A DNA stretch of 64,000 nt, from contig CAZLCD010000001.1 in the NCBI GenBank assembly GCA_964558375.1, forward strand, positions 131,406 to 195,405. Reading direction: 5' to 3'. A program made the translations under genes and the position numbers. The stretch comes from an uncultured Candidatus Saccharibacteria bacterium. GTDB taxonomy: Bacteria; Patescibacteriota; Minisyncoccia; Phycocordibacterales; PALSA-1337. A model generated the notes under the pieces. That model was not told where the DNA came from and did no database searches. It was given only the letters and a program-made list of their open reading frames with translations. Positions 2,405-54,438 of this stretch are shown here, in pieces; the stretch's first letter is position 1, and each line of letters starts with the position of its first letter.

Positions 2405-4048
2405 ATGGAACTTACATGTACAGGAGCTGTGGAATATGGATCAATAATATATTATTCTCATCTAATTCCAATTGGACTAATCATGGTATTATCTGTTTTT
2501 GTTTTTATAAAATCCGAATTTTCTTTTATATCAAGAATATTTCTCACATTCTCCAGTATATTTTCACTATGGTTATTGGGAGATGTTGTTGCTTGGGTAT
2601 CCACAGACTACAATATAATTTCATTTTTCTGGTCATCGCTTGACTATATAAATATACTATTCTATCTTTTTGCGCTATATTTCTTTTTTGTTGTTGTAAA
2701 AGGAAAAGATTTGTCTTTTATATATAAAATATTCCTAACTATATTATCTTTGCCAGCATGGTTTCTGACTATAAGTAATCTATCGATAGTGGAATTTGAT
2801 ACTACATGGTGTGAGGCTATAAATAATGAATTTCTAACAAACTATAAATTGGCCATAGAGGCTATCGTTATTGCATTCATAATTATTATTTCTATATACG
2901 AATTATTTAAAAAAATAGATTATTCACATAAAAAGAAAGTTGTCGTAGTTTCTGTTGCTCTAATTTTGTTCTTCCTTATATTTTCTATTACAGAATATAT
3001 ATCTAGCACCACAGGAGTCTACGAAATTAATTTATATAGTCTTTTTATACTTCCGGTATTTCTTTTTATAATCATATTTTCTACAATAAATCTTAAGGTT
3101 TTTAATATCAAACTAGCTGGCACACAGTTATTGGTCTACACAATGATTATTCTTGTCGGCTCACAATTCTTTTTTCTTGAAAATACTACGAGTCAAGTTT
3201 TAACCATTAGTACTTTTATATTATCGCTATCCTTTGGTGTTGTCCTAGTGAAAGATGCAAAACAGCAGGTCCTCCAACGCGAGCGTATCGAAGCTCTGGC
3301 TATCGACTTAAGAAAAGCCAATGATCGACTAACGGAGCTTGATATACAGAAAAGTGAATTCGTTTCGTTTGCCAGCCATCAGCTACGTGCGCCACTTACT
3401 GCTATTAAGGGCTACTCATCGCTACTTTTGGAAGGGGAGTTTGGGGCGATAGGGAAGGAAACAACCGAGGCCATTAGTCGTATTTTTGAAAGTTCAAAGA
3501 CATTGGCAACTATGGTTGATGACTATTTAAATATCTCAAGAATAGAGTTGGGTACGATGAAATATTCTTTCGATATGATAGATCTCAAAGAATTGGCTCA
3601 AAATGTTATAGCTGAACTCAAGCCAAATATTGAAAAAAGTAAGCTCGACTTTACTTTTGCAACCGATCCTGCGGATCCGAAAGAGAGATTTATGATACAT
3701 GCTGATAAAAATAATTTAAAGCAAGTTGTCGGCAACCTTATAGACAATTCTATAAAATATACTCCAAGTGGTTCCATCAAGGTTTTGCTTGCCAAAAATA
3801 AAGAAACAAGAAAAATTATTTTCTCTATCAAAGACACCGGAGTGGGGATAGATCCAGCTGTGATGCCAAAGCTTTTTTCAAAATTTGTCAGGGCACTCAA
3901 TGCTGATAAGCAGAATATTTATGGTACGGGCTTAGGGCTTTTCGTGGCTAAAGAGATAGTGCTCGCACACAAAGGCCGCCTTTGGGCTGAGTCAAAGGGG
4001 GAGGGTAAAGGCTCTACGTTTTTCTTGGAGATGGATATGGAGGTTTAG
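2405..4048 (+). CDS. Sensor histidine kinase with N-terminal multi-TM (about 8 helices) sensor
   Basis: H-box SHQLRAPLTAIKGY, HATPase motifs DTGVGI and GTGLGL; long hydrophobic N-terminal half. Confidence 0.8.
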   Translation: MELTCTGAVEYGSIIYYSHLIPIGLIMVLSVFVFIKSEFSFISRIFLTFSSIFSLWLLGDVVAWVSTDYNIISFFWSSLDYINILFYLFALYFFFVVVKGKDLSFIYKIFLTILSLPAWFLTISNLSIVEFDTTWCEAINNEFLTNYKLAIEAIVIAFIIIISIYELFKKIDYSHKKKVVVVSVALILFFLIFSITEYISSTTGVYEINLYSLFILPVFLFIIIFSTINLKVFNIKLAGTQLLVYTMIILVGSQFFFLENTTSQVLTISTFILSLSFGVVLVKDAKQQVLQRERIEALAIDLRKANDRLTELDIQKSEFVSFASHQLRAPLTAIKGYSSLLLEGEFGAIGKETTEAISRIFESSKTLATMVDDYLNISRIELGTMKYSFDMIDLKELAQNVIAELKPNIEKSKLDFTFATDPADPKERFMIHADKNNLKQVVGNLIDNSIKYTPSGSIKVLLAKNKETRKIIFSIKDTGVGIDPAVMPKLFSKFVRALNADKQNIYGTGLGLFVAKEIVLAHKGRLWAESKGEGKGSTFFLEMDMEV

Positions 4049-4119
4049 AAAAAACCCAAGGCTTAGTTGCCTCGGGTTCTTTCCAATCTCATGCATCGGG
4101 CATGGGGCTTTAATTTTTT

Positions 4120-4500
4120 CTACCTCTTCGCAACCTTTTTTACCATCTTCTTCGCCCCCTTCTTCACTTTAGCCTTCGGCAAAGTCTTTAGAATACTTTT
4201 CCACTGACCTTTAAGTACTTGCGCAAAAGCTTGAAGTTCTGGAGCAGCTACTTTACCGTTTGAAAGATAAGAAGCTAGCACAGAATCCACAATGCTATGG
4301 TAAACCTGCTCGGTGATCTCCTCTGCGTTTTGTATCTGCTCAATAATTTCGCCTTTCATTTTGATCATCCAACCCACCGCCTTCTTGCGATGAATATTTC
4401 CAGACGGACCAAAGAAGTAATATGTACTTGCTGCTAATGCTACTGCACCTGTTCCTAGAGCCACAATTGTTTTTGCAGAAACTTTATTATTTTTTTTCAT
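4120..4500 (-). CDS. Hypothetical membrane-anchored protein, Lys-rich C-terminus
   Basis: N-terminal TM (VALGTGAVALAAS), helical body, KKxxKK tail. Confidence 0.35.
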   Translation of the reverse strand: MKKNNKVSAKTIVALGTGAVALAASTYYFFGPSGNIHRKKAVGWMIKMKGEIIEQIQNAEEITEQVYHSIVDSVLASYLSNGKVAAPELQAFAQVLKGQWKSILKTLPKAKVKKGAKKMVKKVAKR

Positions 4501-4573
4501 AGTTTTGTTTCAGAATTAATCTGTTAATGTCTACTTGTTTTAGTATACCACTATAGAATTATTTAGGTATTGA

Positions 4574-4831
4574 CTACTTCAACATCTTGTTTCTAGGCTT
4601 TTTCTTGGCAGGGAAGAGCATTTTGAAAAAGACATTGTCGCGCATATCGTCGATAAGCTCCATAGTGGTATCTCCTATAGTCTCTACACTAGACTCTATT
4701 TTCTCCAAGATAGCTGTCAGAGAACGCAAAGCTCTTATAAAATAAACAAGAAGAATGGCTAGTAATATGCCCAAGATAATAAAACCTATTGATGAAATAA
4801 AGAAAAATATTTCTGAATGAATGATTTGCAT
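4574..4831 (-). CDS. Small membrane protein
   Basis: 85 aa, single N-terminal TM helix. Confidence 0.3.
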   Translation of the reverse strand: MQIIHSEIFFFISSIGFIILGILLAILLVYFIRALRSLTAILEKIESSVETIGDTTMELIDDMRDNVFFKMLFPAKKKPRNKMLK

Positions 4832-4877
4832 GTCTCTATTATATACTATCTGCTATAATATAAGGTAATCCTTTTAT

Positions 4878-6626
4878 ATGTTCATCGAAGATTCACAGCT
4901 TAATAAATTTATCCTTGATTCAAATCTTATATCAAAGGCTGATCTGGATTTGGCTGCAATTGAGGCAAAAGAAAAAGGCGTACGCCTCGGAGATATTCTA
5001 GTTAATACTGGCAAAATCACTGCCGATAATCTTCGCAGAATGCAAGCCTATGTGCTCGGTATACCTTTCGTTGATTTGAAAAATATAAAGATCCCTCTTG
5101 AGACTTTGTCTATGATCCCTGAGCCTGTAGCTCGCAATCACAATATCGTCGCTTTCAAAAAAGATGAACAATCCATGGAAGTGGCTATGCTCGATGTAGA
5201 TGATCTTTCTGCAATTGACTTCGTCAAGAAAAAAGTTTCTCTAAAGATTCTGCCAAGACTAACGGATTCAGAATCCATCAAGAATGCCATTATCCAATAT
5301 CAAAAGAGTTTGAAAGCCGAGTTTGGTGATCTTATTCAAAAAGAAACTGATGCACTAAAAACCGCTGTAGAAAAAACAGGGAATCCGACAACCGAAGAGG
5401 ATTTGAAAAAGGTAGCTTCTGACCTACCTGTGGTGCATATAGTCGACACTCTTCTCAAGCATGCTATTTTGCAAAATGCTTCAGATATACACATAGAGCC
5501 TATGGAAGAATCGTTACTTGTGAGATATCGCATCGATGGTCTGCTAAACGATGCTATGATTTTGCCGAAAAATGCTGAAGCCTCTATCACAGCGCGTATC
5601 AAAGTTCTTTCGAACTTGAAACTTGATGAGAAGCGCTTGCCACAAGATGGTCGCTTCAAGATAGAGATGAATGGAGAGAAGGTGAGCTTCCGAGTCTCGC
5701 TATTGCCGACCTACTATGGAGAAAAGACCGTGATGCGTCTCTTGCGAGAAAGTGTCTCTGGTTTTACTTTGGAATATCTTGGATTTCATGGTGAGGCTTT
5801 GGAGAGGATACATCATGCTAGTACTTTGACTACAGGTATGATACTCACCACTGGTCCTACAGGTTCCGGAAAGACCACAACCCTCTATACTATTCTCGAT
5901 ATTCTCAATCAGCCAGATGTCAACATTTCAACCATCGAAGATCCAGTGGAGTATCAAATGAAAAGAATTAATCAGACACAAGTAAAGCCTGATATTGGTT
6001 TTACATTTGCCTCGGGTTTGAGAACACTTGTCAGACAGGATCCAGATGTGATCATGGTTGGTGAGATTCGAGACAATGAAACTGCTTCACTTGCCGTCAA
6101 TGCCGCTTTGACTGGTCACCTTGTGCTCTCTACTCTACACACAAACAGCGCAGCTGGAGCTATACCGAGATTTTTGGATATGAAGATCGAACCATTCCTC
6201 TTGGTTTCTACGATCAATGTGATCATCGCTCAGAGGCTTGTGCGAAAGCTTTCTGAAAGTAAGCAGCAATATTTTTTGAATGCAGAAGAATTGGCAGTCT
6301 TGGCCAAAAGTGTCGATCTCGACAGGGTACTCGAAGCATTGAAGGTTGAGAAAGTAGTGAAGCCAGAGGATACTTGGGATAAGATTCCTTTGTATAAAGC
6401 TGTACCTTCGAAAGATAATGATGGATACAAAGGGCGTATCGGTATTCACGAAGTTTTGAAAGTTACACCGACCATCAAGGAACTTATCATCAAAGGTGCC
6501 ACTTCAGGCGAGATAGAAATCCAGGCCAAAAAGGAAGGCATGCTTACCATGATCGAAGATGGAATTTTCAATGTTGTTTCTGGTCGTACAACAATAGAAG
6601 AGGTGTTAAGGGTGATCTCCGAATAA
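4878..6626 (+). CDS. pilB: Type IV pilus / T2SS assembly ATPase (GspE/PilB family)
   Basis: N-terminal T2SSE_N-like domain, Walker A GPTGSGKTT, Asp box, His box (TGHLVLSTLHTN). Confidence 0.85.
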   Translation: MFIEDSQLNKFILDSNLISKADLDLAAIEAKEKGVRLGDILVNTGKITADNLRRMQAYVLGIPFVDLKNIKIPLETLSMIPEPVARNHNIVAFKKDEQSMEVAMLDVDDLSAIDFVKKKVSLKILPRLTDSESIKNAIIQYQKSLKAEFGDLIQKETDALKTAVEKTGNPTTEEDLKKVASDLPVVHIVDTLLKHAILQNASDIHIEPMEESLLVRYRIDGLLNDAMILPKNAEASITARIKVLSNLKLDEKRLPQDGRFKIEMNGEKVSFRVSLLPTYYGEKTVMRLLRESVSGFTLEYLGFHGEALERIHHASTLTTGMILTTGPTGSGKTTTLYTILDILNQPDVNISTIEDPVEYQMKRINQTQVKPDIGFTFASGLRTLVRQDPDVIMVGEIRDNETASLAVNAALTGHLVLSTLHTNSAAGAIPRFLDMKIEPFLLVSTINVIIAQRLVRKLSESKQQYFLNAEELAVLAKSVDLDRVLEALKVEKVVKPEDTWDKIPLYKAVPSKDNDGYKGRIGIHEVLKVTPTIKELIIKGATSGEIEIQAKKEGMLTMIEDGIFNVVSGRTTIEEVLRVISE

Positions 6627-6647: not shown

Positions 6648-7871
6648 ATGCCACATTTTATTTTTAAAGCAAAAAATTCTAGCGGACAAGTATACAAAGA
6701 TGAAAGAGATGCGAAGGATCGCTATGAACTTTACCGAATACTAAAAGAAAATGGTGAAGAAATAATAAAGATTAAGGAAAGAGAACACAGTATGTTTTCC
6801 TTCGCTAGACTTACGGCGCTTCTGCCCTTTGGCCATTCCATAAAGATCCAAGAGAAAATAACTTTGGCCAGAAATCTTGGAGCCATGATCACTGCCGGAC
6901 TTTCCATGTCACGCGCTTTGTCCGTGATCGAAAGACAAAGCAACAACAAGCTTCTGAAGAGGATTTTGAATACCTTAAAAACCAAAATCAGTGAAGGAAA
7001 GACCCTAAGTGAGGCTATGGGGCTTTATAAAAACATTTTTTCACCTATCTTCGTCTCTATGGTCAAAGCGGGGGAGCAGAGTGGAACTTTGGCGGAGTCT
7101 CTGCGAGTAGTGGCGGTGCAGATGGACAAATCCTTTGCTCTGCAAAGAAGAGTAAGGGGAGCCATGATGTATCCAGGCGTGATCCTTATCGCCATGATAC
7201 TTATTGCTATACTTATGCTTACATATATCGTTCCGACCTTGATGAAAACATTTACAGAACTAAAGCTCGATCTTCCTGCTTCTACAAAGTTTGTACTCTG
7301 GACTAGTAGCCTTGTAAGAGAGCATGGGTTCTTTCTTTTCTTGGCAATAGCAGTGGGACTTGGAATCTTTGTGGCTTGGTCCAAGCGCGCTTCTGGCAAA
7401 AAGGTTATACATTATGCCATTTTAAAAATCCCCATCATCGGCAACATTATCAAAGAGATTAACACTGCAAGAACAGCCAGAACTCTCTCTTCACTTATTT
7501 CGTCCGGTGTGGATATGATAGAAGCTATAAACATCACTACAGATGTTGTACAGAATGTGCACTATAAAGCGGTATTGAAAGAGACAAGTGAGGTGGTCAA
7601 AGCGGGAGGTCCGATGTCGGAAGTCTTCAGTCGGCATACCAAACTTTATCCGATCTTTATCGGAGAAATGATGAGTGTGGGTGAAGAAACTGGAAAGATA
7701 GGGGAGATGCTCCTCGGTGTGGCGGTGTTCTATGAAGATGATGTAGAACAAAAGACCAAGGACATGTCCACTGTGATCGAGCCTTTCCTTATGGTGACTA
7801 TCGGTGCGGTGGTCGGGTTCTTTGCAGTTGCGATGATTTCACCTATGTACTCATTGGTCAATGTAATCTAA
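6648..7871 (+). CDS. pilC: Type IV pilus / T2SS platform protein (GspF/PilC family)
   Basis: 407 aa, two GspF repeats, three TM segments, immediately downstream of pilB. Confidence 0.85.
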   Translation: MPHFIFKAKNSSGQVYKDERDAKDRYELYRILKENGEEIIKIKEREHSMFSFARLTALLPFGHSIKIQEKITLARNLGAMITAGLSMSRALSVIERQSNNKLLKRILNTLKTKISEGKTLSEAMGLYKNIFSPIFVSMVKAGEQSGTLAESLRVVAVQMDKSFALQRRVRGAMMYPGVILIAMILIAILMLTYIVPTLMKTFTELKLDLPASTKFVLWTSSLVREHGFFLFLAIAVGLGIFVAWSKRASGKKVIHYAILKIPIIGNIIKEINTARTARTLSSLISSGVDMIEAINITTDVVQNVHYKAVLKETSEVVKAGGPMSEVFSRHTKLYPIFIGEMMSVGEETGKIGEMLLGVAVFYEDDVEQKTKDMSTVIEPFLMVTIGAVVGFFAVAMISPMYSLVNVI

Positions 7872-9671
7872 ATGCCAAATCAAATTAAATTTAAACAAGG
7901 TTTCACTCTAGTCGAAGTTCTAGTCGGTATCGCCGTTTTTCTTTTGATCGCTACAGCTTCTTATCAAGCTTATATAAGCCTCTTTACTTTGATAAATTTG
8001 AATCAATACAAAATCACCGCGCTCAATCTGGTTAATGAGCAATTTGAAATTATTCGCAATCTTCCATACGCAGATGTTGGTGTGCAGGGAAGTATTCCAA
8101 AAGGCAAAATCCCTCATACACAGACTCTGACTCGAAGTGGTGTCACATTTGTAGTGACAGCAACGATCAGAAATGTTGATCTGCCTTTCGACGGAACTAT
8201 CGGTGGAAGTCCAAATGATCTTTCACCTTCGGATAATAAAATAGTTGAGATTCAAGTAGACTGTGCAAGTTGTAAAAGCTTTACACCTCTTAGTCTGACC
8301 ACAACAGTGGCACCGAAGAACTTGGAGACAGCTTCTACAAATGGTGCTCTATTTATCAGAGTCTTTGATGCAAATGGTATAGCTATACCTGATGCTTCGG
8401 TACATATTGTAAACAATAAGGTCAGCCCTGCTATCACAATCGATGATGTGACAGATGTAAACGGTATGCTTCAGATAGTTGATGTGCCTCCAGGTACCAA
8501 TGCCTATGAGATCACGGTTAGTAAAAATGGATATTCAAGCGATAGGACATATACGCCAGGAACACTAGAAAATCCAGATCCCACACAACCACATGCCAAT
8601 GTTCTTATTCAGCAAGTAACTCAAATAAGTTTTGTTATAGATCGACTCAGTACACTTTCATTCTCAAGTGTTACACCGACATGCCAAGCCGTGCCAAATA
8701 TTGACTTCAATTTGACTGGTGCAAAAACAATAGGCACCAATATCCCAAAATATTCACAGAACCTTATTACCAATAGCAGTGGAGTTTATTCAAACAGCGC
8801 AATAGAGTGGGATACGTATCAAGTTCTTGTGAATGATGCAGATTACAATATTATAGGCCTCAATCCTTTAAATCCTATTCTTCTAAATCCCAATAGTTCA
8901 CAGAATGTTCGACTCATTTTACAACCAAAGGATCCAAATACTTTACTTGTCACTATCAAAGATAGTGCTACGAATCTTCCTTTGACTGATGCTATGATCA
9001 AGGTGACAGGTCCAGCGTCTTTTAATGAGACCAAGATTTCTGGTCGAGGATTTATCAATCAGACGAACTGGTCTGGAGGTCCGAATCAAACTTTATACAC
9101 AGATCTGATCAAATATTTCTTTGATGATGGTAGTACAGAAATCGCCTCGCCCACTGGAGAGATCAAATTGAAAAATGTATTCGGCGCATATAACCCTAGT
9201 GCTGTGCTCGAATCCTCAACTATCGACACTGGATCTGTCAGTAATTTTTACAATCTGACTTGGGGTCCTGTGGATCAGCCTGTGCTTGCGGGGCCAGAAA
9301 GTGTGAAGTTCCAATTTGCAAGCAATGATAGTGATCCTGCGACCACAACATGGGAATATGTCGGTCCAGATGGCGCGACAACCACCTATTACACTTCTTC
9401 CAATACTTCGCTTTCATCTATTCACAATGGAGATCGCTATGCTCGCTACAAAGTTTTCTTGAAAACAGATTCGACCACCGTCACACCAAACATCTCTGAT
9501 GTGGCTTTCACTGTGACATCATCTTGTACACCTCCAGGGCAAGTCGTATTTTCTGGTTTGCCTTTAGGTACCTATCATGTCGAAGTCGGCAAGAGTGGGT
9601 ACGCTACCTCAACGCTTGATGTCGACTTGAATGTTCCATGGAAGGAGCAGGAGATGATTTTAAACCAATAA
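7872..9671 (+). CDS. Large prepilin-like protein (class III signal, 599 aa) with Ig-like/carboxypeptidase-regulatory-like repeats
   Basis: N-term KFKQGFTLVEVLVGIAVF (G|FTLVE with Glu+5); beta-rich T/S/N-rich body with motifs like IRVFDANGIAIPDASVHIV and GTYHVEVGKSGYATS. Confidence 0.7.
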   Translation: MPNQIKFKQGFTLVEVLVGIAVFLLIATASYQAYISLFTLINLNQYKITALNLVNEQFEIIRNLPYADVGVQGSIPKGKIPHTQTLTRSGVTFVVTATIRNVDLPFDGTIGGSPNDLSPSDNKIVEIQVDCASCKSFTPLSLTTTVAPKNLETASTNGALFIRVFDANGIAIPDASVHIVNNKVSPAITIDDVTDVNGMLQIVDVPPGTNAYEITVSKNGYSSDRTYTPGTLENPDPTQPHANVLIQQVTQISFVIDRLSTLSFSSVTPTCQAVPNIDFNLTGAKTIGTNIPKYSQNLITNSSGVYSNSAIEWDTYQVLVNDADYNIIGLNPLNPILLNPNSSQNVRLILQPKDPNTLLVTIKDSATNLPLTDAMIKVTGPASFNETKISGRGFINQTNWSGGPNQTLYTDLIKYFFDDGSTEIASPTGEIKLKNVFGAYNPSAVLESSTIDTGSVSNFYNLTWGPVDQPVLAGPESVKFQFASNDSDPATTTWEYVGPDGATTTYYTSSNTSLSSIHNGDRYARYKVFLKTDSTTVTPNISDVAFTVTSSCTPPGQVVFSGLPLGTYHVEVGKSGYATSTLDVDLNVPWKEQEMILNQ

Positions 9672-32835: not shown

Positions 32836-33411
32836 ATGAAACCACATACACATACAGCAAAGCCAACATTTGAAATGAATAAGGAGTCCTTCAAGGCTCT
32901 CAAGGAAAAGTTCGACTACAAAAATGTCATGCAAGCGCCAAAGCTTACTAAGCTCGTGATCAGTACTGGTACGGGATCAGTGAAAGACAAGAAAAAGATC
33001 GAACTTATAGCTGATCGTCTAGCAAAGATCACAGGTCAGAAACCAGCTCCTCGTTCAAGTAAGAAATCAATTGCTTCTTTCAAAGTGCGACAAGGTGACC
33101 TTGTTGGATATCAGATCACTCTTCGTGGCAAGAGAATGGCAGACTTTATCGACAAGCTTGTGCATATCGCTCTTCCTCGTACAAAAGACTTTCGTGGTAT
33201 CTCAAAGACTGCTGTAGATGAAATGGGGAACTATACTCTAGGTATTAAGGAACACACTATCTTCCCAGAAACCGCAGATGAAGATCTAAAGGATGTTTTT
33301 GGTTTTGCTATGACTATCGTTACTACTTCAAAGAAGAAAGAAGAAACTCTAGCTTTCCTAGAATATCTCGGTTTTCCATTTAAGAAAGAGGAAGTGAAGA
33401 AGGGGAAGTAG
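32836..33411 (+). CDS. rplE: 50S ribosomal protein L5
   Basis: Conserved L5. Confidence 0.9.
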   Translation: MKPHTHTAKPTFEMNKESFKALKEKFDYKNVMQAPKLTKLVISTGTGSVKDKKKIELIADRLAKITGQKPAPRSSKKSIASFKVRQGDLVGYQITLRGKRMADFIDKLVHIALPRTKDFRGISKTAVDEMGNYTLGIKEHTIFPETADEDLKDVFGFAMTIVTTSKKKEETLAFLEYLGFPFKKEEVKKGK

Positions 33412-33551
33412 GGTTGAAAAATTTGTTTATTTTAGTTAACTTTGATATCATTCTCTTTATCATCTGAAGACTGGAAAATCCCCGCCCAGCGCTCTCCTAG
33501 AGAGAGGCATGTATGTGAGAACTTGGGGTCTCACCAGAACTAAAAACGGTT

Positions 33552-33576
33552 GGAAGTTTACCTTCCAGCCTTTTTA
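33552..33576 (+). terminator. Hairpin + T-run on plus strand inside foreign insert
   Basis: GGAAGtttacCTTCC then agccTTTTT. Confidence 0.35.
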
Positions 33577-33619
33577 GTTCGCTAGAAGTAGGAGGTGAGT
33601 TTGGGAAAATAAAAAGGGA

Positions 33620-33656
33620 GGTAATAAAAAACAGGCGGTCATTTCTGAGCGCCTGT
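33620..33656 (-). terminator. Rho-independent terminator of minus-strand foreign ORF
   Basis: CAGGCG...CGCCTG stem followed by T6 on minus strand, directly downstream of ORF stop at 33716. Confidence 0.55.
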
Positions 33657-33715
33657 GTAAATCTTCGAAGCATTGAGATTTCTCCGGTTGCTTCACCGAG
33701 TGGACAAACCACCAT

Positions 33716-34150
33716 TCATTGCAAGAGGTACCAATCTGCATTGGCTTGCCAAGACTGACTGTCTTGCCGTATAAACCTAAATGCATTCCTGAGTGTGAGT
33801 TCATACCCAGCTTTAATGCCAGGTTCCAACATCATAACTTGGGGTTTCTGTTGCGTGCGCCAGTCACTGACAATGACTGTGCCCAGTTTGGTGACCTCAT
33901 CAACCATGAAGACACGAGAGGGTGAATCCAGTTTCTCTAAACTGTGCACCTCAACAAGGTCGCCCGTACGGAGCTTTTGTTGCTCCTGGACATATTGGGT
34001 GATGACGTGCTGGGTGGTGGTATGCAAACCAGCAAACCACCGCGCTTCTTCTTCGGCACTGATTGCCATCTGTCGCAAGAAGATAAGTGTGCTTGTCAGC
34101 AGCACGGCGGCGATAGCTGTTCCGATAGACAAGTAATCACGAGTTTTCAT
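33716..34150 (-). CDS. Membrane-anchored hypothetical protein of foreign (GC-rich, proteobacterial-like) composition inserted in ribosomal operon
   Basis: 144 aa, N-terminal TM (LSIGTAIAAVLLTSTLIFL); G+C visibly about 50% vs host about 35-40%; Q/R/W/A-rich unlike neighbouring K/I/N-rich proteins. Confidence 0.55.
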   Translation of the reverse strand: MKTRDYLSIGTAIAAVLLTSTLIFLRQMAISAEEEARWFAGLHTTTQHVITQYVQEQQKLRTGDLVEVHSLEKLDSPSRVFMVDEVTKLGTVIVSDWRTQQKPQVMMLEPGIKAGYELTLRNAFRFIRQDSQSWQANADWYLLQ

Positions 34151-34436: not shown

Positions 34437-34622
34437 ATGGCAAAAAAATCAACAATAGCAAGATCAAGTAAAGCACCGAAATTCAAAAGTCGAGTGGTTC
34501 GACGTTGCTTCCGTTGCGGTCGAAAGAATGGCTATATGAGAGACTTTGACCTTTGCCGTATTTGTTTTAGAGAGTTCGCTAATGAAGGAGTTATTCCAGG
34601 AATAAAAAAATCATCATGGTAA
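34437..34622 (+). CDS. rpsN: 30S ribosomal protein S14 type Z (zinc-binding, 61 aa)
   Basis: CxxC...CxxC (RCFRCGR...CRICFRE). Confidence 0.9.
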   Translation: MAKKSTIARSSKAPKFKSRVVRRCFRCGRKNGYMRDFDLCRICFREFANEGVIPGIKKSSW

Positions 34623-45394: not shown

Positions 45395-45489
45395 AATTTC
45401 CGTATTTGTTTTTGTTGTGTCTGGTATTGCCCAGCGTTGTTCAAGCTGCGGGTAGCATATGATTTAACTTGGCTACTGTCAAATTTTGT

Positions 45490-45906
45490 GGAGATGGGCG
45501 GAATCGAACCGCCGTGCAAATGAAGTTTCATAATACTTCTACATTGTATAGATTACTTTAGCGAGACAAGCCTTGCGACCTATCTCTTTTAACTTATACA
45601 CTTTAAAATAAACAAAATATATATAAGCGATTCCCCAAGTTTCAAACTAGAGACAGGGAAGAGTCAGTAGTTCTATGTCTAATTTATATCACCCCAACAT
45701 TGAACTAGACAAAATCAATGTGGAATGTCGCTTAAGCCGTAGCTAGAGCGAAAGTGAAATCTCGTGATCCAAAATATGGAGACACAGCAGACTTTACTTT
45801 TGTAAGTGCTGATTCAGCATTTAACATTTTCTATAAGTTTAAAGAGTTTATAGAGCTCTACAATGCATAGTATGAAATACCTCAAATGTCGAGGCCTTTC
45901 ATCCCC
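45490..45906 (-). ncRNA. ssrA: tmRNA (SsrA)
   Basis: 5' GGGGAUGAAAGGCCUCGACAUUUGAGG (tmRNA 5' consensus-like) pairs with 3' tRNA-like end GGCGGUUCGAUUCCGCCCAUCUCCA (T-arm + acceptor); directly downstream of smpB. Confidence 0.75.
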
Positions 45907-45918
45907 ATGTTTAATTTT

Positions 45919-46371
45919 TCAACGATCCTTAAATTCTCTTCGAATATCACGGTTCACATCGCGCTTCTTTATATCTTCACGCTTATCGTACTTTTTCTTA
46001 CCGCGTACCACAGCGATCTGAACCTTGATTTTCGTGCCTTTACTATACACTGAAATAGGAGCTATTGTCAAACCCTTCTTCGCCTCAAGAGAAGCGAGCT
46101 GCTGAACCTCACTCTTTTTTAAAAGAAGCTTACGATTCCTTTTTTGATTGTAATCTTGCGGAGTATTGTTCATCTGGAAAGGGGGGATATCTAGAGCAAT
46201 AATAAAGGCTTCTCCTCCGCGCACGGTCACATGCGCTCCTAGAAGGGAGCCCTGTTTATTACGAAGACTCTTTACTTCGAAACCCAGAAGTTCGATACCT
46301 GCTTCAAAAGACTCGAGTATCTCATAGTCTAGGTTTATCTTTTTATTATAAATAAGGGATTCAGAAGGCAT
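45919..46371 (-). CDS. smpB: SsrA-binding protein SmpB
   Basis: GIELLGFEVKSLR, KRNRKLLL, VRGKKKYDKRE motifs. Confidence 0.9.
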   Translation of the reverse strand: MPSESLIYNKKINLDYEILESFEAGIELLGFEVKSLRNKQGSLLGAHVTVRGGEAFIIALDIPPFQMNNTPQDYNQKRNRKLLLKKSEVQQLASLEAKKGLTIAPISVYSKGTKIKVQIAVVRGKKKYDKREDIKKRDVNRDIRREFKDR

Positions 46372-46871: not shown

Positions 46872-48782
46872 ATGAAGAAAAAACAAGATTCTGAAGGAAA
46901 AAAGCAAAATAAAAAAGTAAATAAATTTGGTCTACTGAACTCCATCGCTACGGTTTTATTTGTGCTCTTTATTATAACTAGTCTATATTCTGTAGCTGTA
47001 GAGCAACAGGCCAATGTGACAGATATATCATTGTCGGAACTTGTACATGACGTGGGGATGGGTAAGGTGTCGTCTATTGTTGTAAGGGGAGACGATATTG
47101 TTGCTGAGTATGCAGACAAAACTTCAAAGAAAACTAAAAAAGAAACTGACTCTTCTGTCACAGAAACTTTCGCTCGGTACGGACTGACTCCAGAAAAGCT
47201 CAATGCTGTCAAAATAAATGTTGAAGGACCTAGTGGTGCCGGATTTTGGTTCGCGCAGATTTTGCCTTTCTTAGCACCTTTAATTTTCCTTGGTCTTATT
47301 ATCTGGTTTCTATCGAGACAAGTTAAAGGAGCTGGCATGCAAGCTTTTTCTTTCGGTCAAAGCAAGGCTCGTATTACTGCTTCTGACGATAAGAAACAAA
47401 AGGTGACTTTCAAGGATGTGGCTGGAGCAAAAGAAGCCAAGCAAGAACTTTCAGAGATTGTCGACTTCTTAAAGAATCCCAAAAAGTTTCTCGATATCGG
47501 CGCGGTTATTCCAAAAGGGATTTTGCTTATGGGGGCACCAGGAACAGGAAAGACTCTCTTAGCTCGTGCCGTCGCAGGTGAAGCCTCTGTAACTTTCTTT
47601 GCGATTTCTGGTTCAGAATTTGTGGAGATGTTTGTGGGTGTGGGTGCGAGTCGAGTGCGTGATCTTTTTAAAATGGCAAAGCAGGCAGCGCCATCTATTA
47701 TATTCGTAGATGAAATAGACGCAGTAGGAAGGGTTCGTGGTACTGGAGTTGGTGGTGGTAATGATGAGCGCGAGCAGACTCTAAATCAGATTCTTGTAGA
47801 AATGGACGGCTTTGAACCAAACGAAAAGGTGATCGTGATGGCTGCTACAAACAGACCTGATGTTCTTGATCCTGCTTTGCTTCGTCCGGGTCGCTTTGAT
47901 CGTCGTGTGACTATAGATCTTCCAGATCGAGGTGATAGAGAAGAGATTCTAAAAATCCACTCGGCAAAGAAGCCTTTTGCAGAAGATGTAGCTCTTCGTG
48001 TGATAGCTGAGAGAACTCCTGGATTTTCTGGTGCTGATCTTTATTCTCTTATGAATGAAGGAGCTATTCTTGCTGCGCGTGAGAATCGTACAAAGGTATC
48101 CCAATACGACCTCATAAGGGCTATCGAAAAAGTGATGCTTGGTCCTGAAAGAAAAAGTCATTTACTTTCTAAAAAAGAAAAAGAGATCACTGCATATCAT
48201 GAAGCAGGCCATGCTCTTGTTGCGTCTGTCCTACCTTTTGCTGATCCTGTTCACAAAATCTCTATCATTTCTCGTGGTCGTGCAGCTGGTTATACTTTAC
48301 ATTTACCTCTTGAAGATAGAAAAATGCAAAGTAAAAAAGAGTTTCTTGATGATATCTCCGTGTCCCTCGGTGGTTATGTGGTCGAGAAGATGATGTTTGA
48401 CGATGTGACTACTGGTCCTTCAAATGATCTTCAGGTATCTACTGCTCTAGCGCGCGATATGGTTACAAAGTATGGTATGTCAGAAAAGATCGGTGTGCTT
48501 GCTCTAGAAAATTCTGGTGGTCGTGCAATGTTTGGAAAGGGAATAGAGGGTAAAGAATATTCCGAAAAGATCGGTGCAGACATAGACTCTGAAGTAGCAC
48601 GTATTATGGATGAAGCTTATAAAAAAGCTGAGCATATCGTTACCAAACATCGCGTTGCTCTAGACTCCATTGCTAAGAGGCTTATAGAAACTGAAACTAT
48701 AGAGAGAGAAGAATATGAAAGCATCATAATTGCTCATGGTATACAACCAAAGAAGAAGTTGGATATAGAGCATCAGATATGA
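46872..48782 (+). CDS. ftsH: ATP-dependent zinc metalloprotease FtsH
   Basis: AAA Walker [18 protein letters not shown] zinc motif. Confidence 0.95.
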
Positions 48783-48822: not shown

Positions 48823-48896
48823 GCGCCTGTAGCTCAGTTGGTTAGAGCATCGAGCTTATACCTCGAGGGTCCCACGTTCGAATCGTGGCAGGCGCA
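48823..48896 (+). tRNA. tRNA-Ile (anticodon UAU)
   Basis: Cloverleaf: acceptor GCGCCTG/CAGGCGC, D-arm GCTCAGTTGGTTAGAGC, anticodon loop CTTATAC, T-arm CCACGTTCGAATCGTGG. Confidence 0.8.
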
Positions 48897-48973
48897 CAAA
48901 AGGCTTGATTTTGATGTGGGGGTGGGTATATAGTGTGTGGTAGTAAACTGCAACAACTTACAACTAAATATTT

Positions 48974-49384: not shown

Positions 49385-51673
49385 TTATTCCCAATGCTTA
49401 ACATCACTTTCTCTAGCTTTTAAATAATCTTTCACTTGAGGATATTTAATTAAATTTATATCTTCTTCAACCAAGATTTTTGCTTCAGTTCTTGCTGCCT
49501 CTACCATTTTAATATTTTGCAATGCTTCCATAGCTATATCAGACATTCCCCATTGTTTGCCACCAGACAATTCTCCAGATCCTCGAAACTTAAGATCATA
49601 TTCTGCGAGTTCAAATCCATTCTTTGCGGTTTTTAAGGCATTGAGGCGGTCTATCGTCTTGTCAGATTTTGTTTCGGCAAAGACATAACAATAAGCTTGA
49701 TCATTGGAACGGATCACGCGTCCGCGTAGCTGATGTAGCTGTGCCAGGCCGAAACGCTCCGCACCTTCTATGATAATAACGGTGGCGTTCGGCACATTGA
49801 CCCCGACTTCGACTACCGATGTGGCACAAAGAATATTTATTTTGCCCAATTTAAAATCCGCCATCACGCGATCCTTTTCTGCAGGTTTCATTTTGCTATG
49901 AAGTATACCTATTTCATATTCAGGGAAAACTTTACTCTTCAACCTCTTGGCTTCCTCTTTCACTGACTTGGCATTGATCGCTAGTTCTTTGTCTGGATCT
50001 GGTTCATTGATTCTTGGACAGATGACATAGGCTTGTCTTCCCAAATTTAATTCAAGACGAATTTTCTCATAAGTTTCTTCTCTTTTATTTGGTGTTACTA
50101 TATCGGTTATTATAGGTTTTCTGCCATGGGGCATTTGATCTAGTAAAGTAAGGTCTAGGTCGCCATATATTGTCAAAGCCAATGTGCGAGGGATTGGTGT
50201 GGCAGTCATGGATAAGAGATGAGGGACTCTCAGAAAAGAACTATTCTCATCAGCACGCATAAAAGCCTGTTGGCTTTTTGCTATTCTCGGCCCATCGGCC
50301 TGCGAAATGCTTCCTCGAATAGTCTTTTCTGCGAGTCCCTGTATTTCTTTCTGCACTAATGAAGCCCTTTGTTTGAGACCAAAGCGATGTTGTTCATCGA
50401 TGATCACATAAGCTAGATGTTTAAATTTTACAGCTTTCTGTATAAGTGCATGTGTGCCTATGAGGATGGGGATTTCTCCGAGTGCTACCCATTTTAAAAG
50501 TTGTGTGCGAGAAATATCTGTCCAGCCCTTCGGATTTAATTTTGAAGGAAATTTCCTACAGCCACTTCCTGTGATAAGGCCGATTTGAATTCCTAAATAC
50601 GAAAAATATTGAATAAAAGATTCAAAGTGTTGGGTTGCCAATATTTCTGTGGGACACATATAGGCGACCTGAAGGTGGCCGAACTTTCTCTGCACGCCAT
50701 TTTCTTTTGGAGTGGTTGTAACTACGGCGTAGGCAGTAGAGGCGGCTACGGCGGTTTTGCCGGAGCCGACATCTCCTTCAAGTAGTCGAGACATGGCATG
50801 ACCTCTTTTAAAATCTTCTACTATGGTCGCTATAGACTTCCTCTGTGCCTCGGTGGCTTCAAAAGGAAAGCGTTTTATGAACTCATGCATATTTTTCTCT
50901 GATGGTTCAATAATGAAGGCTGGATTTTTCTCATATTGTTTGCGAGTAATCTGCTTTTCTAATTGAATAAAAAATATTTCTTCAAAGGCAAAGCGCTTAC
51001 GTGCAGAAGCTGCATCTTCATTTTTCATGGGCGTATGTATCCAGATCAAGGCGGTCTTGAGACTGGGTAGATTGTATTTTGAGAGAATCTCTTTTGGTAT
51101 CGGATCTGTTATCTGATCCAATATTCCTTCTTTAAAAATTTCGATGATTTTGTGATATATCCAGTTTGAAGTGATACCTCTGGACTCTGGATAAATGGGG
51201 TAGAGGGTATGGTTCTGTCCATCATCTTTAAAAAGTGAATCTCCAACGCCTGTTGGCAATTTATTCACTATCTCTATTTTTGGATTTGAAAAATACAGTT
51301 CCTGAGTTTTTTTTCTTTCCGAAACTTTACCTTCAATCCTCACCAAAGCATTCTCCGCTGTCATCTTCGCAATATATGGTTGATTGAACCAGACGCAATG
51401 TATCTTTCCACTCTCATCTTCTACCCAAGCGTCGGCCATGGCGATTTTTGTTTTGAACCCTTTGCTGGTTTTGAGCTTGGATATTTTTCCAAAAATAACA
51501 GCAGTGTCTCCAGCGACAAGTGAAGAGATGTTTTTGGTTTCGGAAGTGTCTCCATAACGAGCAGGGAAATGATAAAGTAGATCTCGCACAGTCTCTATAC
51601 CGAGCTTTTTTAGAGCGATTTTCTGTGGAGGGATAAGGCGAGCATTGTCTGTAATCAGTGAATCGTATTGCAT
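49385..51673 (-). CDS. recG: ATP-dependent DNA helicase RecG
   Basis: Wedge domain N-terminus, helicase motifs GDVGSGKT, DEQHRFG, 762 aa. Confidence 0.9.
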   Translation of the reverse strand: MQYDSLITDNARLIPPQKIALKKLGIETVRDLLYHFPARYGDTSETKNISSLVAGDTAVIFGKISKLKTSKGFKTKIAMADAWVEDESGKIHCVWFNQPYIAKMTAENALVRIEGKVSERKKTQELYFSNPKIEIVNKLPTGVGDSLFKDDGQNHTLYPIYPESRGITSNWIYHKIIEIFKEGILDQITDPIPKEILSKYNLPSLKTALIWIHTPMKNEDAASARKRFAFEEIFFIQLEKQITRKQYEKNPAFIIEPSEKNMHEFIKRFPFEATEAQRKSIATIVEDFKRGHAMSRLLEGDVGSGKTAVAASTAYAVVTTTPKENGVQRKFGHLQVAYMCPTEILATQHFESFIQYFSYLGIQIGLITGSGCRKFPSKLNPKGWTDISRTQLLKWVALGEIPILIGTHALIQKAVKFKHLAYVIIDEQHRFGLKQRASLVQKEIQGLAEKTIRGSISQADGPRIAKSQQAFMRADENSSFLRVPHLLSMTATPIPRTLALTIYGDLDLTLLDQMPHGRKPIITDIVTPNKREETYEKIRLELNLGRQAYVICPRINEPDPDKELAINAKSVKEEAKRLKSKVFPEYEIGILHSKMKPAEKDRVMADFKLGKINILCATSVVEVGVNVPNATVIIIEGAERFGLAQLHQLRGRVIRSNDQAYCYVFAETKSDKTIDRLNALKTAKNGFELAEYDLKFRGSGELSGGKQWGMSDIAMEALQNIKMVEAARTEAKILVEEDINLIKYPQVKDYLKARESDVKHWE

Positions 51674-51705
51674 TTAGGCATTATACGATATAATCTACTA
51701 ATATT

Positions 51706-51793
51706 GGAACCGTGGTGGAGTGGTCTAACATACCTCTTTGCTAAAGAGGCAGGCCCTTTAAAGGTCTCGAGGGTTCGAATCCCTCCGGTTCCG
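51706..51793 (+). tRNA. tRNA-Ser (anticodon GCU), long variable arm
   Basis: Acceptor GGAACCG/CGGTTCC, anticodon loop TTGCTAA, long extra arm, T-arm GAGGGTTCGAATCCCTC. Confidence 0.8.
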
Positions 51794-51989
51794 CAATAGT
51801 TCTTGAGAATGGCTTTTGCCATTCGAAAGAATTATCGGGAAAACGAGGAGATGAGAAAGCCGGACTGAGCGAAGGCAAAGGAGGCGGGGTCGCAAGCGCT
51901 TTCAGCAGAAAGCGACTTGTGACCGAATCCCTAATATCAATAAAATAGAGCCACTTCCACTTGGGAAGCAGCTCCGGCTTTTGGATCGC

Positions 51990-52376
51990 CTAGCGACTCG
52001 GTTTACCTTGCATATCATCGGTAACCTCGACGAGATTTTGGCGAGTGACTCCACTAATGATTTCGGCTTCGTCCTCACCAAAACAGAAACACTCACCAAG
52101 CTTTGGATAGCCATGCCTTCTCCACCACCTCGCCGCCCATGGCCGATATCTTTCTAGTGTGATAATTGCTCGATCTTGTGGAACACTGAATCCAAGACGA
52201 TTGTGAGTACGTTCTTTGTCACTTATGGCATCACGCTCAAATTCTCCATCTGGATAGCCAAGGTACGGTTCACATGGAAGAGTCAACCAAAGCCATGCTC
52301 GGCGGACTTCAAAAGGTGCTTCGCCTGCTGGTACTTTTGTGATTCTGATTCGCCCGGTTGCTGATTCATCTGTCAT
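51990..52376 (-). CDS. Hypothetical protein of atypical (R/W/G/P-rich, GC-rich) composition adjacent to tRNA-Ser
   Basis: 128 aa; local G+C clearly higher than flanks. Confidence 0.45.
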   Translation of the reverse strand: MTDESATGRIRITKVPAGEAPFEVRRAWLWLTLPCEPYLGYPDGEFERDAISDKERTHNRLGFSVPQDRAIITLERYRPWAARWWRRHGYPKLGECFCFGEDEAEIISGVTRQNLVEVTDDMQGKPSR

Positions 52377-52493
52377 TGTGTAAAGTCCTTTCGGTTAATT
52401 GTTTGTCTAAAGTAGATACTATCAGAATTTTCTGGAATAGCCAAAAATTACCCTAATCGTATAAAAGTACTACGATTGTGGTAAAATAACCCC

Positions 52494-52922: not shown

Positions 52923-53378
52923 ATGACAAACTCAATATTTGATTTTTTAGGACTTTTTATTTTTATCTCTGGTTTTATTATTGGCCTCGGAGCTGTCACG
53001 GTTATCGATATTCACGGCTTTCTCGGACGAAAATCATCATACTGGACCGAAGCAGCGACGCGAACACATAAGGTTACAAAACCTATGATCTGGGTTGGAA
53101 TCATTCTTGCTATTATTGGTGGTTTGATTTTCTACCGCCATCAGTCTTTCTCGGGTATTCCACTCGTTCATTCAATCTCTGCACTCATCTTAATTGCAAA
53201 TGGATATTTCCTTTCATTCAAAGTTAGTCCGTTTATGTTGCAACGTGAAAAAGAAGGGCGATCTGGAGAATTACTGCCTGCATCATGGCAGAAGAAAATC
53301 ATGATAAGTCTTATTGTTTCAGACATTGGGTGGTGGGGTGGGTTGTTTCTACTTGTTCTATATTTAATTCATCGCTAG
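52923..53378 (+). CDS. Membrane protein (4 TM)
   Basis: Hydrophobic helices. Confidence 0.35.
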   Translation: MTNSIFDFLGLFIFISGFIIGLGAVTVIDIHGFLGRKSSYWTEAATRTHKVTKPMIWVGIILAIIGGLIFYRHQSFSGIPLVHSISALILIANGYFLSFKVSPFMLQREKEGRSGELLPASWQKKIMISLIVSDIGWWGGLFLLVLYLIHR

Positions 53379-53988: not shown

Positions 53989-54438
53989 ATGAAAAAAGTA
54001 TTTTTTGGTATTTTTGGTATAATTAAAGAATTCCTGACAGGGGAACCTCGCTGGTTCCACCCCTATGGTGGGAAAGTGTTAGTTGTTGGCGTTAACCAAG
54101 AGTATTACTCACCGAGAAAAGAGTTGATATTGGGACCATTGTCAAACTTGGTTAGCATTAGGATTTGTAAACATCCTTCCAAATCTAATTATCTGATTTC
54201 TTACGAAATTAGTCACCCTAAAGAGCCCTCGACTGATAAAGGGAGGATCGAGATGTCTGATGTTGACTTGAGAAGAGCTTTCGGATTGTCAGAAGACCTC
54301 GATAGTGAACATAAGGTTCCAGGCAAGTTCATTCGTTCCGGTGACTACTTGCATATTATCTCAGGGTCTTCTCAAGACCCTGGTGTCTTCATTCATCTCG
54401 ACAACAAAATTAAAAAAGATGTTGAGATGTTACTCTAA
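53989..54438 (+). CDS. Hypothetical protein
   Basis: ORF followed by strong terminator. Confidence 0.35.
   Translation: MKKVFFGIFGIIKEFLTGEPRWFHPYGGKVLVVGVNQEYYSPRKELILGPLSNLVSIRICKHPSKSNYLISYEISHPKEPSTDKGRIEMSDVDLRRAFGLSEDLDSEHKVPGKFIRSGDYLHIISGSSQDPGVFIHLDNKIKKDVEMLL

Follow-up and report, generated by a model that had tools for sequence, protein, structure and literature searches.

The 64,000-nt stretch of DNA analysed here (called the window throughout) contains a short GC-rich islet directly downstream of a tRNA-Ser(GCU) gene, and it raises the question whether foreign DNA has entered the genome at the tRNA or whether the islet is an ordinary part of the host sequence. Elements with tyrosine recombinases insert at the 3' ends of tRNA and tmRNA genes and duplicate the 3' part of the gene as attL/attR, and the islet likewise begins at a tRNA 3' end (base 51794), as tRNA-associated genomic islands do. 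The first-pass annotation had accordingly read the islet, together with its small ORF, as a remnant or cargo of an integrated element.

Position and extent of the GC-rich islet

The existence of the islet is confirmed. The segment 51794-52380 has a GC content of 48.6% against a window mean of 38.3%, which corresponds to z = 3.06 in comparison with all 587-nt windows, only 0.2% of which are as high. The sole second peak of similar GC lies at about 33.46-33.56 kb. The features of the locus are as follows.

51706..51794, plus strand: tRNA-Ser(GCU), found by ARAGORN and Rfam
51795-51989: spacer of 195 nt between the tRNA and the ORF, 48.7% GC
51990-52376, minus strand: 128-aa ORF, 48.3% GC, containing both peptides quoted in the first-pass annotation
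52377..52493: intergenic region between the divergent 128-aa and TspO genes; 52442-52482 is the site of an extra 1.4 kb in the close relative L003
52494..52898, plus strand: TspO/MBR family gene, a conserved divergent neighbour whose protein is 100% identical in L003 and L015, used here as the backbone reference for divergence

The GC content is raised in the spacer and in the ORF alike. The islet is real but ordinary, and very probably consists of two native features that happen to adjoin, namely a resident gene and a hairpin-rich spacer between convergent genes.

Base composition of the 128-aa ORF

With 36 long ORFs from the window as reference, the 128-aa protein contains more R (11.7 vs 4.4%), more W (3.9 vs 0.7%), more P (7.0 vs 3.8%) and more E (10.2 vs 6.2%), whereas its contents of K (3.1 vs 7.9%), of I (5.5 vs 9.2%) and of N (1.6 vs 4.6%) are low. 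It is thus indeed unlike the K/I/N-rich proteins of the host, as had been noticed before, and its earlier description as an R/W/G/P/E-rich protein holds for R, W, P and E, while Gly is barely raised (7.8 vs 6.9%).

The same annotation had called the ORF compositionally alien, and this does not stand, because the deviation in GC is restricted to codon positions 1 and 2. The GC1/2/3 values of the ORF are 0.60/0.50/0.35, and the host means are 0.475/0.359/0.329 with a standard deviation of 0.051 for GC3 (n = 53 window ORFs of at least 150 aa), so that GC3 is host-like (0.35 vs 0.33±0.05). Moreover, when the protein was re-coded 2,000 times with the synonymous codon frequencies of the window, a GC content of 46.5±1.5% was obtained, and the observed 48.4% lies within the range of the simulations (p = 0.11, i.e. 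11% of them). Neither the GC3 comparison nor the re-coding test found atypical synonymous composition or codon usage in this ORF. A deviation that is driven by amino acids raises GC1 and GC2 and leaves GC3 unchanged, whereas horizontally acquired DNA deviates in GC3 and codon usage. The 128-aa gene matches the former pattern exactly; the argument applies to the gene and excludes the non-coding spacer. The elevated GC of the islet is therefore ascribed to protein composition and spacer content, not to foreign origin. The conserved sequence, which is rich in R/W/P/E and poor in K/I/N, requires G+C at the first two codon positions, and the third follows the host. In addition, the gene lies 4-11 GC points above its own locus in the window and in all of the related loci measured (7/7, with locus GC contents of 36-56%), so the high GC content belongs to the family as a whole.

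Conservation of the locus in relatives

The genetic organization around the gene is largely shared by L003, which is 95-98% identical to the window. The order in L003 is RecG, tRNA-Ser(GCU), Vut_1 and a 159-aa gene as one insert, the family gene, a metallo-beta-lactamase-fold gene and a 211-aa gene as the extra 1.4 kb at 52442-52482, and then TspO, a 176-aa gene, DoxX, UDG and lipase. Its flanking genes show 93-99% nucleotide identity to those of the window, with dN of at most 0.02 for RecG, TspO, the 176-aa gene, DoxX, UDG and lipase. In L015 the gene is divergent from TspO, like in the window. L014 is a distant relative, with a RecG 52% identical to that of the window, and its neighbourhood keeps tRNA-Ile(UAU), RecG, the family gene, tRNA-Ser(GCU), ComF and PilM with one inversion. 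Furthermore, the gene is flanked in L008, L017 and L025 by FtsH, SmpB and tmRNA, all of which are found 3-6 kb off in the window. The gene thus occupies the same site in the close relatives L003 and L015 and in the more distant L011 and L014. These are same-locus homologues of similar composition in low-GC relatives, a finding that the first-pass annotation itself had named as speaking for an ancestral gene. From these gene orders we regard the 128-aa gene as ancestral at the locus; it would be a resident gene, vertically inherited in the host lineage.

The 3' flank of tRNA-Ser as a variable site

Signs of integration come from the neighbourhood of the gene rather than from the gene itself. 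In blastn, the alignment to L003 with 95% identity ends exactly at 51794, i.e. at the 3' end of the tRNA, which favours an element that entered there. The segment following it is

51795..51940: 146 nt without counterpart in L003, in which 1,460 bp with a Vut_1 transporter gene and a 159-aa gene stand here, with a repeat of the tRNA 3' end at the boundary

and from 51941 to 52441 the two strains are 82% identical. Further downstream, the window carries an extra 151-aa ORF (52923-53378) in comparison with L003, and the gene at 53989-54438 has been replaced, with 42% protein identity between the two. The insert of about 1.4 kb in L003 is framed by TTCCGCTGAAATGGACCCCATAAAGT at the tRNA and TTCCGCTGATCCGTACCCCATAAAGT 1.4 kb away, which are identical at 22 of 26 positions (shuffle p = 0.005), and the sequence CGAGGGTTC upstream of the distal copy corresponds to the T-arm, from the interior of which 15 nt have been deleted. 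Incomplete copies of the tRNA-Ser end are also present in L021, at 155 nt downstream, and in L011, where one lies at about 160 nt downstream and is accompanied by an inverted one. Such att-like duplicates of the tRNA 3' end, which bound an inserted segment in L003, L011 and L021 as in tRNA-associated islands, speak for an integrated element in relatives, and the presence or absence of cassettes between strains exactly at the tRNA end is likewise common to such islands and to this locus.

However, the repeats sit between the tRNA and the family gene in L003, L011 and L021, and the gene lies outside the repeat-bounded segment in all three. In these relatives the family gene is thus conserved flank rather than cargo, as judged from the position of the repeats. 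The locus differs from tRNA-island cargo in this respect, and also in that the gene is conserved at its place and the variable cassettes have a host-like GC content (33-36%). The earlier proposal that the tRNA-Ser 3' end serves as an integration site is therefore right for the neighbourhood, given the break at 51794 and the duplicates in three relatives, and wrong for the ORF. The comparison indicates that the tRNA-Ser 3' flank is a strain-variable hot spot of recombination and integration in this clade, where cassettes are gained and lost.

Search for signatures of integration within the window

A direct repeat of about 15-25 nt of the tRNA end, which the first-pass annotation had proposed to look for near 52380-52480, is absent. 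A repeat search, and local alignment of the terminal 45 nt of the tRNA together with 30 nt of trailer against the 6 kb downstream, gave no direct repeat at 52380-52480 nor elsewhere in the 6 kb, the best matches being at chance level (p = 0.13-0.47). One of them, the 9-nt CGAATCCCT at 51924-51932 (p = 0.13), was considered as a decayed att remnant and rejected, since both L015 and L003 read CGAAGACC there and CGAATCCCT is thus not ancestral. The ORFs at 51.8-56.6 kb encode the 128-aa protein, TspO, the 151-aa, 176-aa and 149-aa proteins, DoxX, UDG and a GDSL lipase, and no recombinase or integrase domain was found among these eight, five of which were scanned with Pfam and NCBIfam (four of those also with PHROGs and PADLOC), while DoxX, UDG and lipase were covered solely via the annotation of their L003 orthologues. 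Unlike tRNA islands, the locus in the window shows no tRNA-end duplicate within these 6 kb, no integrase or mobile-element gene among these ORFs and no atypical synonymous composition. A tyrosine recombinase gene does occur beside one member of the family, since the homologue in L004 sits 56 nt downstream of one, and this counts in favour of an element. No relevant work turned up when the literature was searched for Patescibacteria, genomic islands and tRNA integrases.

A divergent mosaic tract across tRNA and gene

The divergence between the window and L003 is not evenly distributed over the locus. Sliding identity is 100% at 51600-51700, falls to 58-88% across the 3' two-thirds of the ORF and returns to 92-96% at 52241-52340, which delimits the tract

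51706..52240: recombinant tract in comparison with L003, 58-88% identity, with 92-100% on either side

The tRNA-Ser gene itself is only about 80-84% identical to its L003 orthologue, with 14 differences in 89 nt, although the 100 nt upstream are 100% identical. Several of these differences, as read off the alignment without a formal count, fall on both sides of a stem as paired substitutions. Among the pairs of window, L003 and L015, the 128-aa gene has dS of 0.33-0.69 and dN of 0.12-0.19, with a dN/dS of about 0.3, and the dS of TspO is 0.12-0.18. The informative sites occur in long runs in which the window groups first with L003 and then with L015 (max-chi2 28.1, permutation p < 0.0005), and such alternating runs indicate that diverged alleles within the clade have exchanged tRNA and gene piecewise. 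A divergent mosaic tract thus extends over the tRNA, the spacer and the 3' two-thirds of the gene, and each of the three gene alleles (window, L003 and L015) is a mosaic of the others. The alignments point to homologous recombination within the population, and not to import from a compositionally different donor, as the way of exchange; by this process the tRNA and the 3' part of the gene have been swapped between diverged alleles of one clade.

The protein family

The ORF is a real gene, which belongs to a large uncharacterised family of small proteins. A word-indexed search found 27 homologues with 40-80% identity, and when the family profile was run with HMMER against all of 1.84 billion cluster representatives, 1,698 of them scored E<=1e-3 and 818 of these E<=1e-10, i.e. 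a family of about 1,700 clusters at 50% identity. All members with a named source are Patescibacteria, Paceibacterota, Parcubacteria or a MAG of an unclassified 'bacterium'. No relatives were found in IMG/VR, the INPHARED phages or the PLSDB plasmids. This search, which had been suggested as a check for an element, thus speaks against one. A pattern scan of the JGI metagenome contigs with the family protein gave only four distant loci. No family in Pfam-A, NCBIfam, PHROGs or PADLOC matched the 128-aa protein at E<=0.1, ten members extended at the N terminus by about 65-200 residues likewise had no match to a curated family, and in a profile search no PDB sequence came below E = 0.6.

Among the conserved motifs of the family are TGRIRI, VPxGEAP, LPC, VPQ, F-F-EDEAEIISGV and a helix that contains WW. 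For the 128-aa protein, which is taken to be soluble, structure prediction gives an SH3-like beta-barrel into which a pair of helices is inserted (AF2 core pLDDT >90), and its closest known counterparts would be the small SH3-like beta-barrel proteins PetP, PsaE and the KOW-like OapB, the OapB-like match being weak. As a working guess, which we hold with low confidence, the model suggests that the protein may be a cytoplasmic SH3-like binding module evolving under local diversification.

The spacer and its hairpins

The spacer between the convergent tRNA and 128-aa genes contains three hairpins and a purine-rich linker.

51796..51835, plus strand: hairpin H1, right after the tRNA, -20.6 (plus) vs -14.9 (minus) kcal/mol, no U-tract, within the segment absent from L003
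51836..51887, plus strand: purine-rich linker of 52 nt, 81% A+G, with several GGAG/AGGAGG motifs, its right half conserved in L015
51888..51924, plus strand: hairpin H2, 16 bp with one bulge, -26.1 (plus) vs -22.7 (minus) kcal/mol, identical in L015, no U-tract
51937..51975, minus strand: hairpin H3 with T-run, 12 pairs, -22.7 (minus) vs -14.3 (plus) kcal/mol, intrinsic terminator of the 128-aa gene

H3 fits the pattern of intrinsic terminators: just past the stop codon, the gene strand has a stem of 12 bp that contains G+C, and ATTTTATT comes directly after it. The terminator scan matched 51975..51947 on the minus strand, with the T-run extending to 51937, 12 pairs and a ATTTTATTGA tail, and both L003 and L015 retain the hairpin, in which a single G-U pair is changed to G-C. 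Judged by these features, H3 is the predicted intrinsic terminator of the 128-aa gene itself. In contrast to intrinsic terminators, H1 and H2 on the tRNA strand have no U-tracts, and the purine tract between them has no terminator role; these two hairpins probably belong to a 3' trailer transcript of the tRNA.

The composition of the spacer is not fully accounted for, since its part outside the stems still has 47% GC, and this is the one piece that the native-gene reading leaves unexplained. Its origin may be connected with the variable cassettes. Of H2, only the 3' half, AGCGACTTGTGACCGAA (the last 17 nt), is shared with L003, where it stands at the right end of the insert of about 1.4 kb, and this match hints that the trailer derives by deletion from such an insert. 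An origin of the 146-nt trailer as what a deletion left of an insert like that of L003 is accordingly a tentative proposal, which we hold to be somewhat less likely than not. The 17-nt match at the right end was the only similarity of the trailer; neither the left end of the L003 insert nor other parts of the window resemble it.

Alternatively, the 146-nt trailer (H1, purine tract and H2) could be a functional small RNA, either stand-alone or derived from the tRNA trailer, and not a scar or a terminator. Its fold on the plus strand is exceptionally stable (-60.0 kcal/mol, z = -6.2), as is that of the whole 195-nt spacer (-80.4 kcal/mol, z = -7.0 on the plus strand vs z = -4.7 on the minus strand), G-U pairs favour the plus strand, and H2 is identical in L015 despite a dS of 0.18 in TspO. 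However, the trailer is absent from the close relative L003, and its conservation is known from two lineages alone. In a search of Rfam 15 down to E<=10 only the tRNA passes, the other hits being below gathering, with E>=0.01 and overlapping the tRNA or belonging to miRNA models. No second copy of the trailer was found in the window, the fetched loci, the JGI metagenome contigs, IMG/VR, or the phage or PLSDB plasmid sets, and an exact-pattern scan of the JGI metagenome contigs with the gene terminator gave no match. We therefore consider a functional small RNA unlikely. Four known kinds of structured RNA (group II intron domain V, retron ncRNA, omega-RNA and T-box) were also considered for the trailer and rejected, with no Rfam hit and no partner gene for any of them.

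Association of the family with tRNA-Ser

The neighbourhoods of the gene were sampled in about 17 independent lineages out of the roughly 1,700 clusters, each with 40% or more identity to the query and with the window and L003 counted as one. A tRNA-Ser lies within 3.5 kb of the 3' end of the gene in eight lineages, and in one (L019) tRNA-Gln is the nearest, so that Ser is the nearest tRNA in 8/9 lineages that have a tRNA within this distance. The anticodon is GCU in five lineages, at 54 nt to 3.3 kb (including window/L003, L011, L014 and L022), and GGA, UGA and CGA in L013, L021 and L026, respectively. A tmRNA stands just upstream of the gene in four loci from three lineages, and five lineages have no nearby tRNA. 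Ser accounts for about 10% of bacterial tRNA genes. The finding of Ser as nearest tRNA with four anticodons is not what chance predicts. A mundane cause is consistent with it, namely recombination between tRNA-Ser paralogues, or elements targeting tRNA-Ser, which would swap the flanks, and it agrees with the scars seen in L011 and L021.

The other possibility is that the 128-aa protein and tRNA-Ser, a class II tRNA with a long variable arm, form a functional module, in which the protein binds, protects, processes or acts on tRNA-Ser and the pair co-diversify and are exchanged together. The excess of Ser over the background of about 10% with all four anticodons would agree with this, as would the divergent tract of the window, which spans tRNA and gene together, and the predicted SH3-like/KOW-like fold, which is compatible with RNA binding although the OapB-like match is weak. 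On the other hand, the two genes are mostly convergent, so there is no co-transcription, their orientation varies (tandem in L022), and the spacing of 54 nt to 3.3 kb includes unrelated genes. Furthermore, lineages exist without any nearby tRNA or with tmRNA instead, and swapping of flanks by recombination between tRNA-Ser paralogues gives the same pattern with no functional link. A functional module is thus very improbable, and we give no more credit to the wider idea that the family is tied to tRNA-Ser as a class, for example as a binding or protecting factor in an arms race against tRNA-targeting nucleases, with the structured trailer as a possible part of the unit.

The ORF in the ribosomal-protein operon and a foreign donor

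The first-pass annotation had also proposed that the islet and an insert in the ribosomal operon (33.4-34.2 kb), which have a similar GC content, derive from the same foreign donor, and had suggested comparing their codon usage. The feature concerned is

33716-34150, minus strand: 144-aa ORF in the ribosomal-protein operon

Its GC content is 49.3% against 42.6±1.4% expected under host codon usage, a value reached in 0 of 2,000 simulations (p < 0.0005), and its GC3 is 0.54. The deviation in GC3 that marks horizontally acquired DNA is thus seen in the 144-aa ORF and is absent from the 128-aa gene, in which GC3 is 0.35 and codon usage host-like. There is no sequence similarity between the two proteins, and the 144-aa ORF has no homologue but itself among 5.8 billion proteins, i.e. 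it is an ORFan. The two ORFs are alike in their overall GC value alone, and a shared donor is refuted.

That the whole segment of about 590 bp including the ORF is a remnant or cargo of an element at the tRNA-Ser end, from a donor of about 50% GC and maybe shared with the ribosomal-operon insert, is likewise largely refuted and very unlikely: its GC content, its place beside the tRNA, the break of identity with L003, the att-like duplicates and the recombinase gene in L004 all speak for it, but they are outweighed by the host-like GC3 and a GC content expected from the amino acids, the same locus and GC excess in relatives, the lack of a direct repeat in the window and of an integrase among the scanned or L003-annotated downstream ORFs, the position of the gene outside the repeat-bounded segments, the lack of phage, plasmid and IMG/VR viral-contig relatives, and the dissimilar ORFan in the ribosomal operon.

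Implications

The locus is a cautionary case, in which a GC peak beside a tRNA mimicked a foreign islet, and codon positions and relatives reveal a native gene, while the ORF in the ribosomal operon of the same window illustrates what a truly atypical gene looks like. Two further points, neither of which alters current understanding, concern those who work on the candidate phyla radiation. The 128-aa gene represents an uncharacterised family of about 1,700 clusters with no Pfam model, which appears to be diversifying by intragenic recombination between near-identical strains. And the 3' ends of tRNA-Ser genes in these tiny genomes are recurrent sites of cassette gain and loss, where duplications of the tRNA end are left as scars.

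The mosaic between RecG and DoxX

Set beside the same locus of L003, a close relative, the window forms a mosaic from RecG to DoxX in which some cassettes are conserved and others swapped, because the two following ORFs (window coordinates) differ in this way:

52923–53378, + strand: 151-aa membrane ORF, missing from L003
53989–54438, + strand: 149-aa ORF, whose counterpart in L003 is a 139-aa gene with 42% identity

For the latter pair dS is saturated, while the genes on either side are 97–99% identical. The tRNA-Ser gene (51706–51794 in the window, 6900–6988 in L003) has 84% identity, and the DNA on its flanks 96–100%; several of the differences, read off the alignment, are paired across the acceptor, anticodon and variable-arm stems. 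The gene appears to have been swapped jointly with its own 3' flank. Furthermore, L003 carries a 1.4-kb insert of two genes, for a Vut_1 vitamin-uptake-type transporter and a 159-aa protein, with no integrase present in it. Its ends are formed by a 26-nt imperfect direct repeat (locus coordinates 5458–5483 and 6880–6905) that takes in the last 6 nt of tRNA-Ser, and the distal copy also retains the T-arm, minus 15 nt deleted between TTC microrepeats. RecG in L003, on a Logan contig, is called as two ORFs (7021–7419 and 7425–8345) that are 98–99% identical to the RecG of the window, which is intact at 762 aa; the split is likely a frameshift or an assembly error. Adjoining RecG in the window is the following tRNA gene:

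48823–48897, + strand: tRNA-Ile, anticodon UAU

It is kept in the distant relative L014 (959–1035). Decoding of AUA by a UAU tRNA-Ile is unusual, and replaces the lysidine-modified CAU tRNA.

The ORF in the ribosomal-protein operon

Another ORF of the window lies inside the ribosomal-protein operon, between the genes for uL5 (32836–33411) and uS14 (34437–34622):

33716–34150, - strand: 144-aa ORF

Its codon usage is genuinely atypical for the host, with a GC3 of 0.54 vs 0.33 and a GC content of 49.3% observed vs 42.6% expected (p<0.0005). The Pfam search gave zero matches, and a search of 5.8 billion proteins returned the self-match and zero other homologues. The adjoining ~300 nt (33412–33715) hold just short overlapping minus-strand ORFs of 72 and 76 aa.

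The 128-aa protein family and its loci

Some members of the 128-aa protein family have N-terminal extensions of ~65–200 residues, which gave zero matches to Pfam models; P0029, P0030, P0056, P0065, P0072, P0096 and P0141 were flagged for extension or duplication, and in P0141 a shortened domain is duplicated in tandem. In the metagenome-assembled genome GCA_030647855.1 (L004), the family gene (5001–5456) lies 56 nt 3' of a same-strand gene (4045–4944) for a 299-aa XerC/D-type tyrosine recombinase, the sole recombinase seen near any family member among the loci examined. In the loci L008, L017 and L025 of other genomes, the family gene is flanked by a trio that is also found in the window, where SmpB (45919–46371) and FtsH (46872–48782) adjoin the following gene:

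45488–45906, - strand: tmRNA, with the long tag peptide AESALTKVKSAVSPYFGSRDFTFALATA

Moreover, partial tRNA 3'-end copies, both inverted and direct, lie 3' of tRNA-Ser in two other loci with the family gene, L011 (11474–11660) and L021 (1600–1830). The trailer motif CCGC-ATTTAAAAATCC-hairpin-GATTTTTTATGCGGAG is common to the tRNA-Ser(GCU) locus of L011 and to a displaced 3' fragment in L021, which adjoins tRNA-Ser(UGA). This common motif suggests that one ancestral position has been held by tRNA-Ser genes of differing anticodons.
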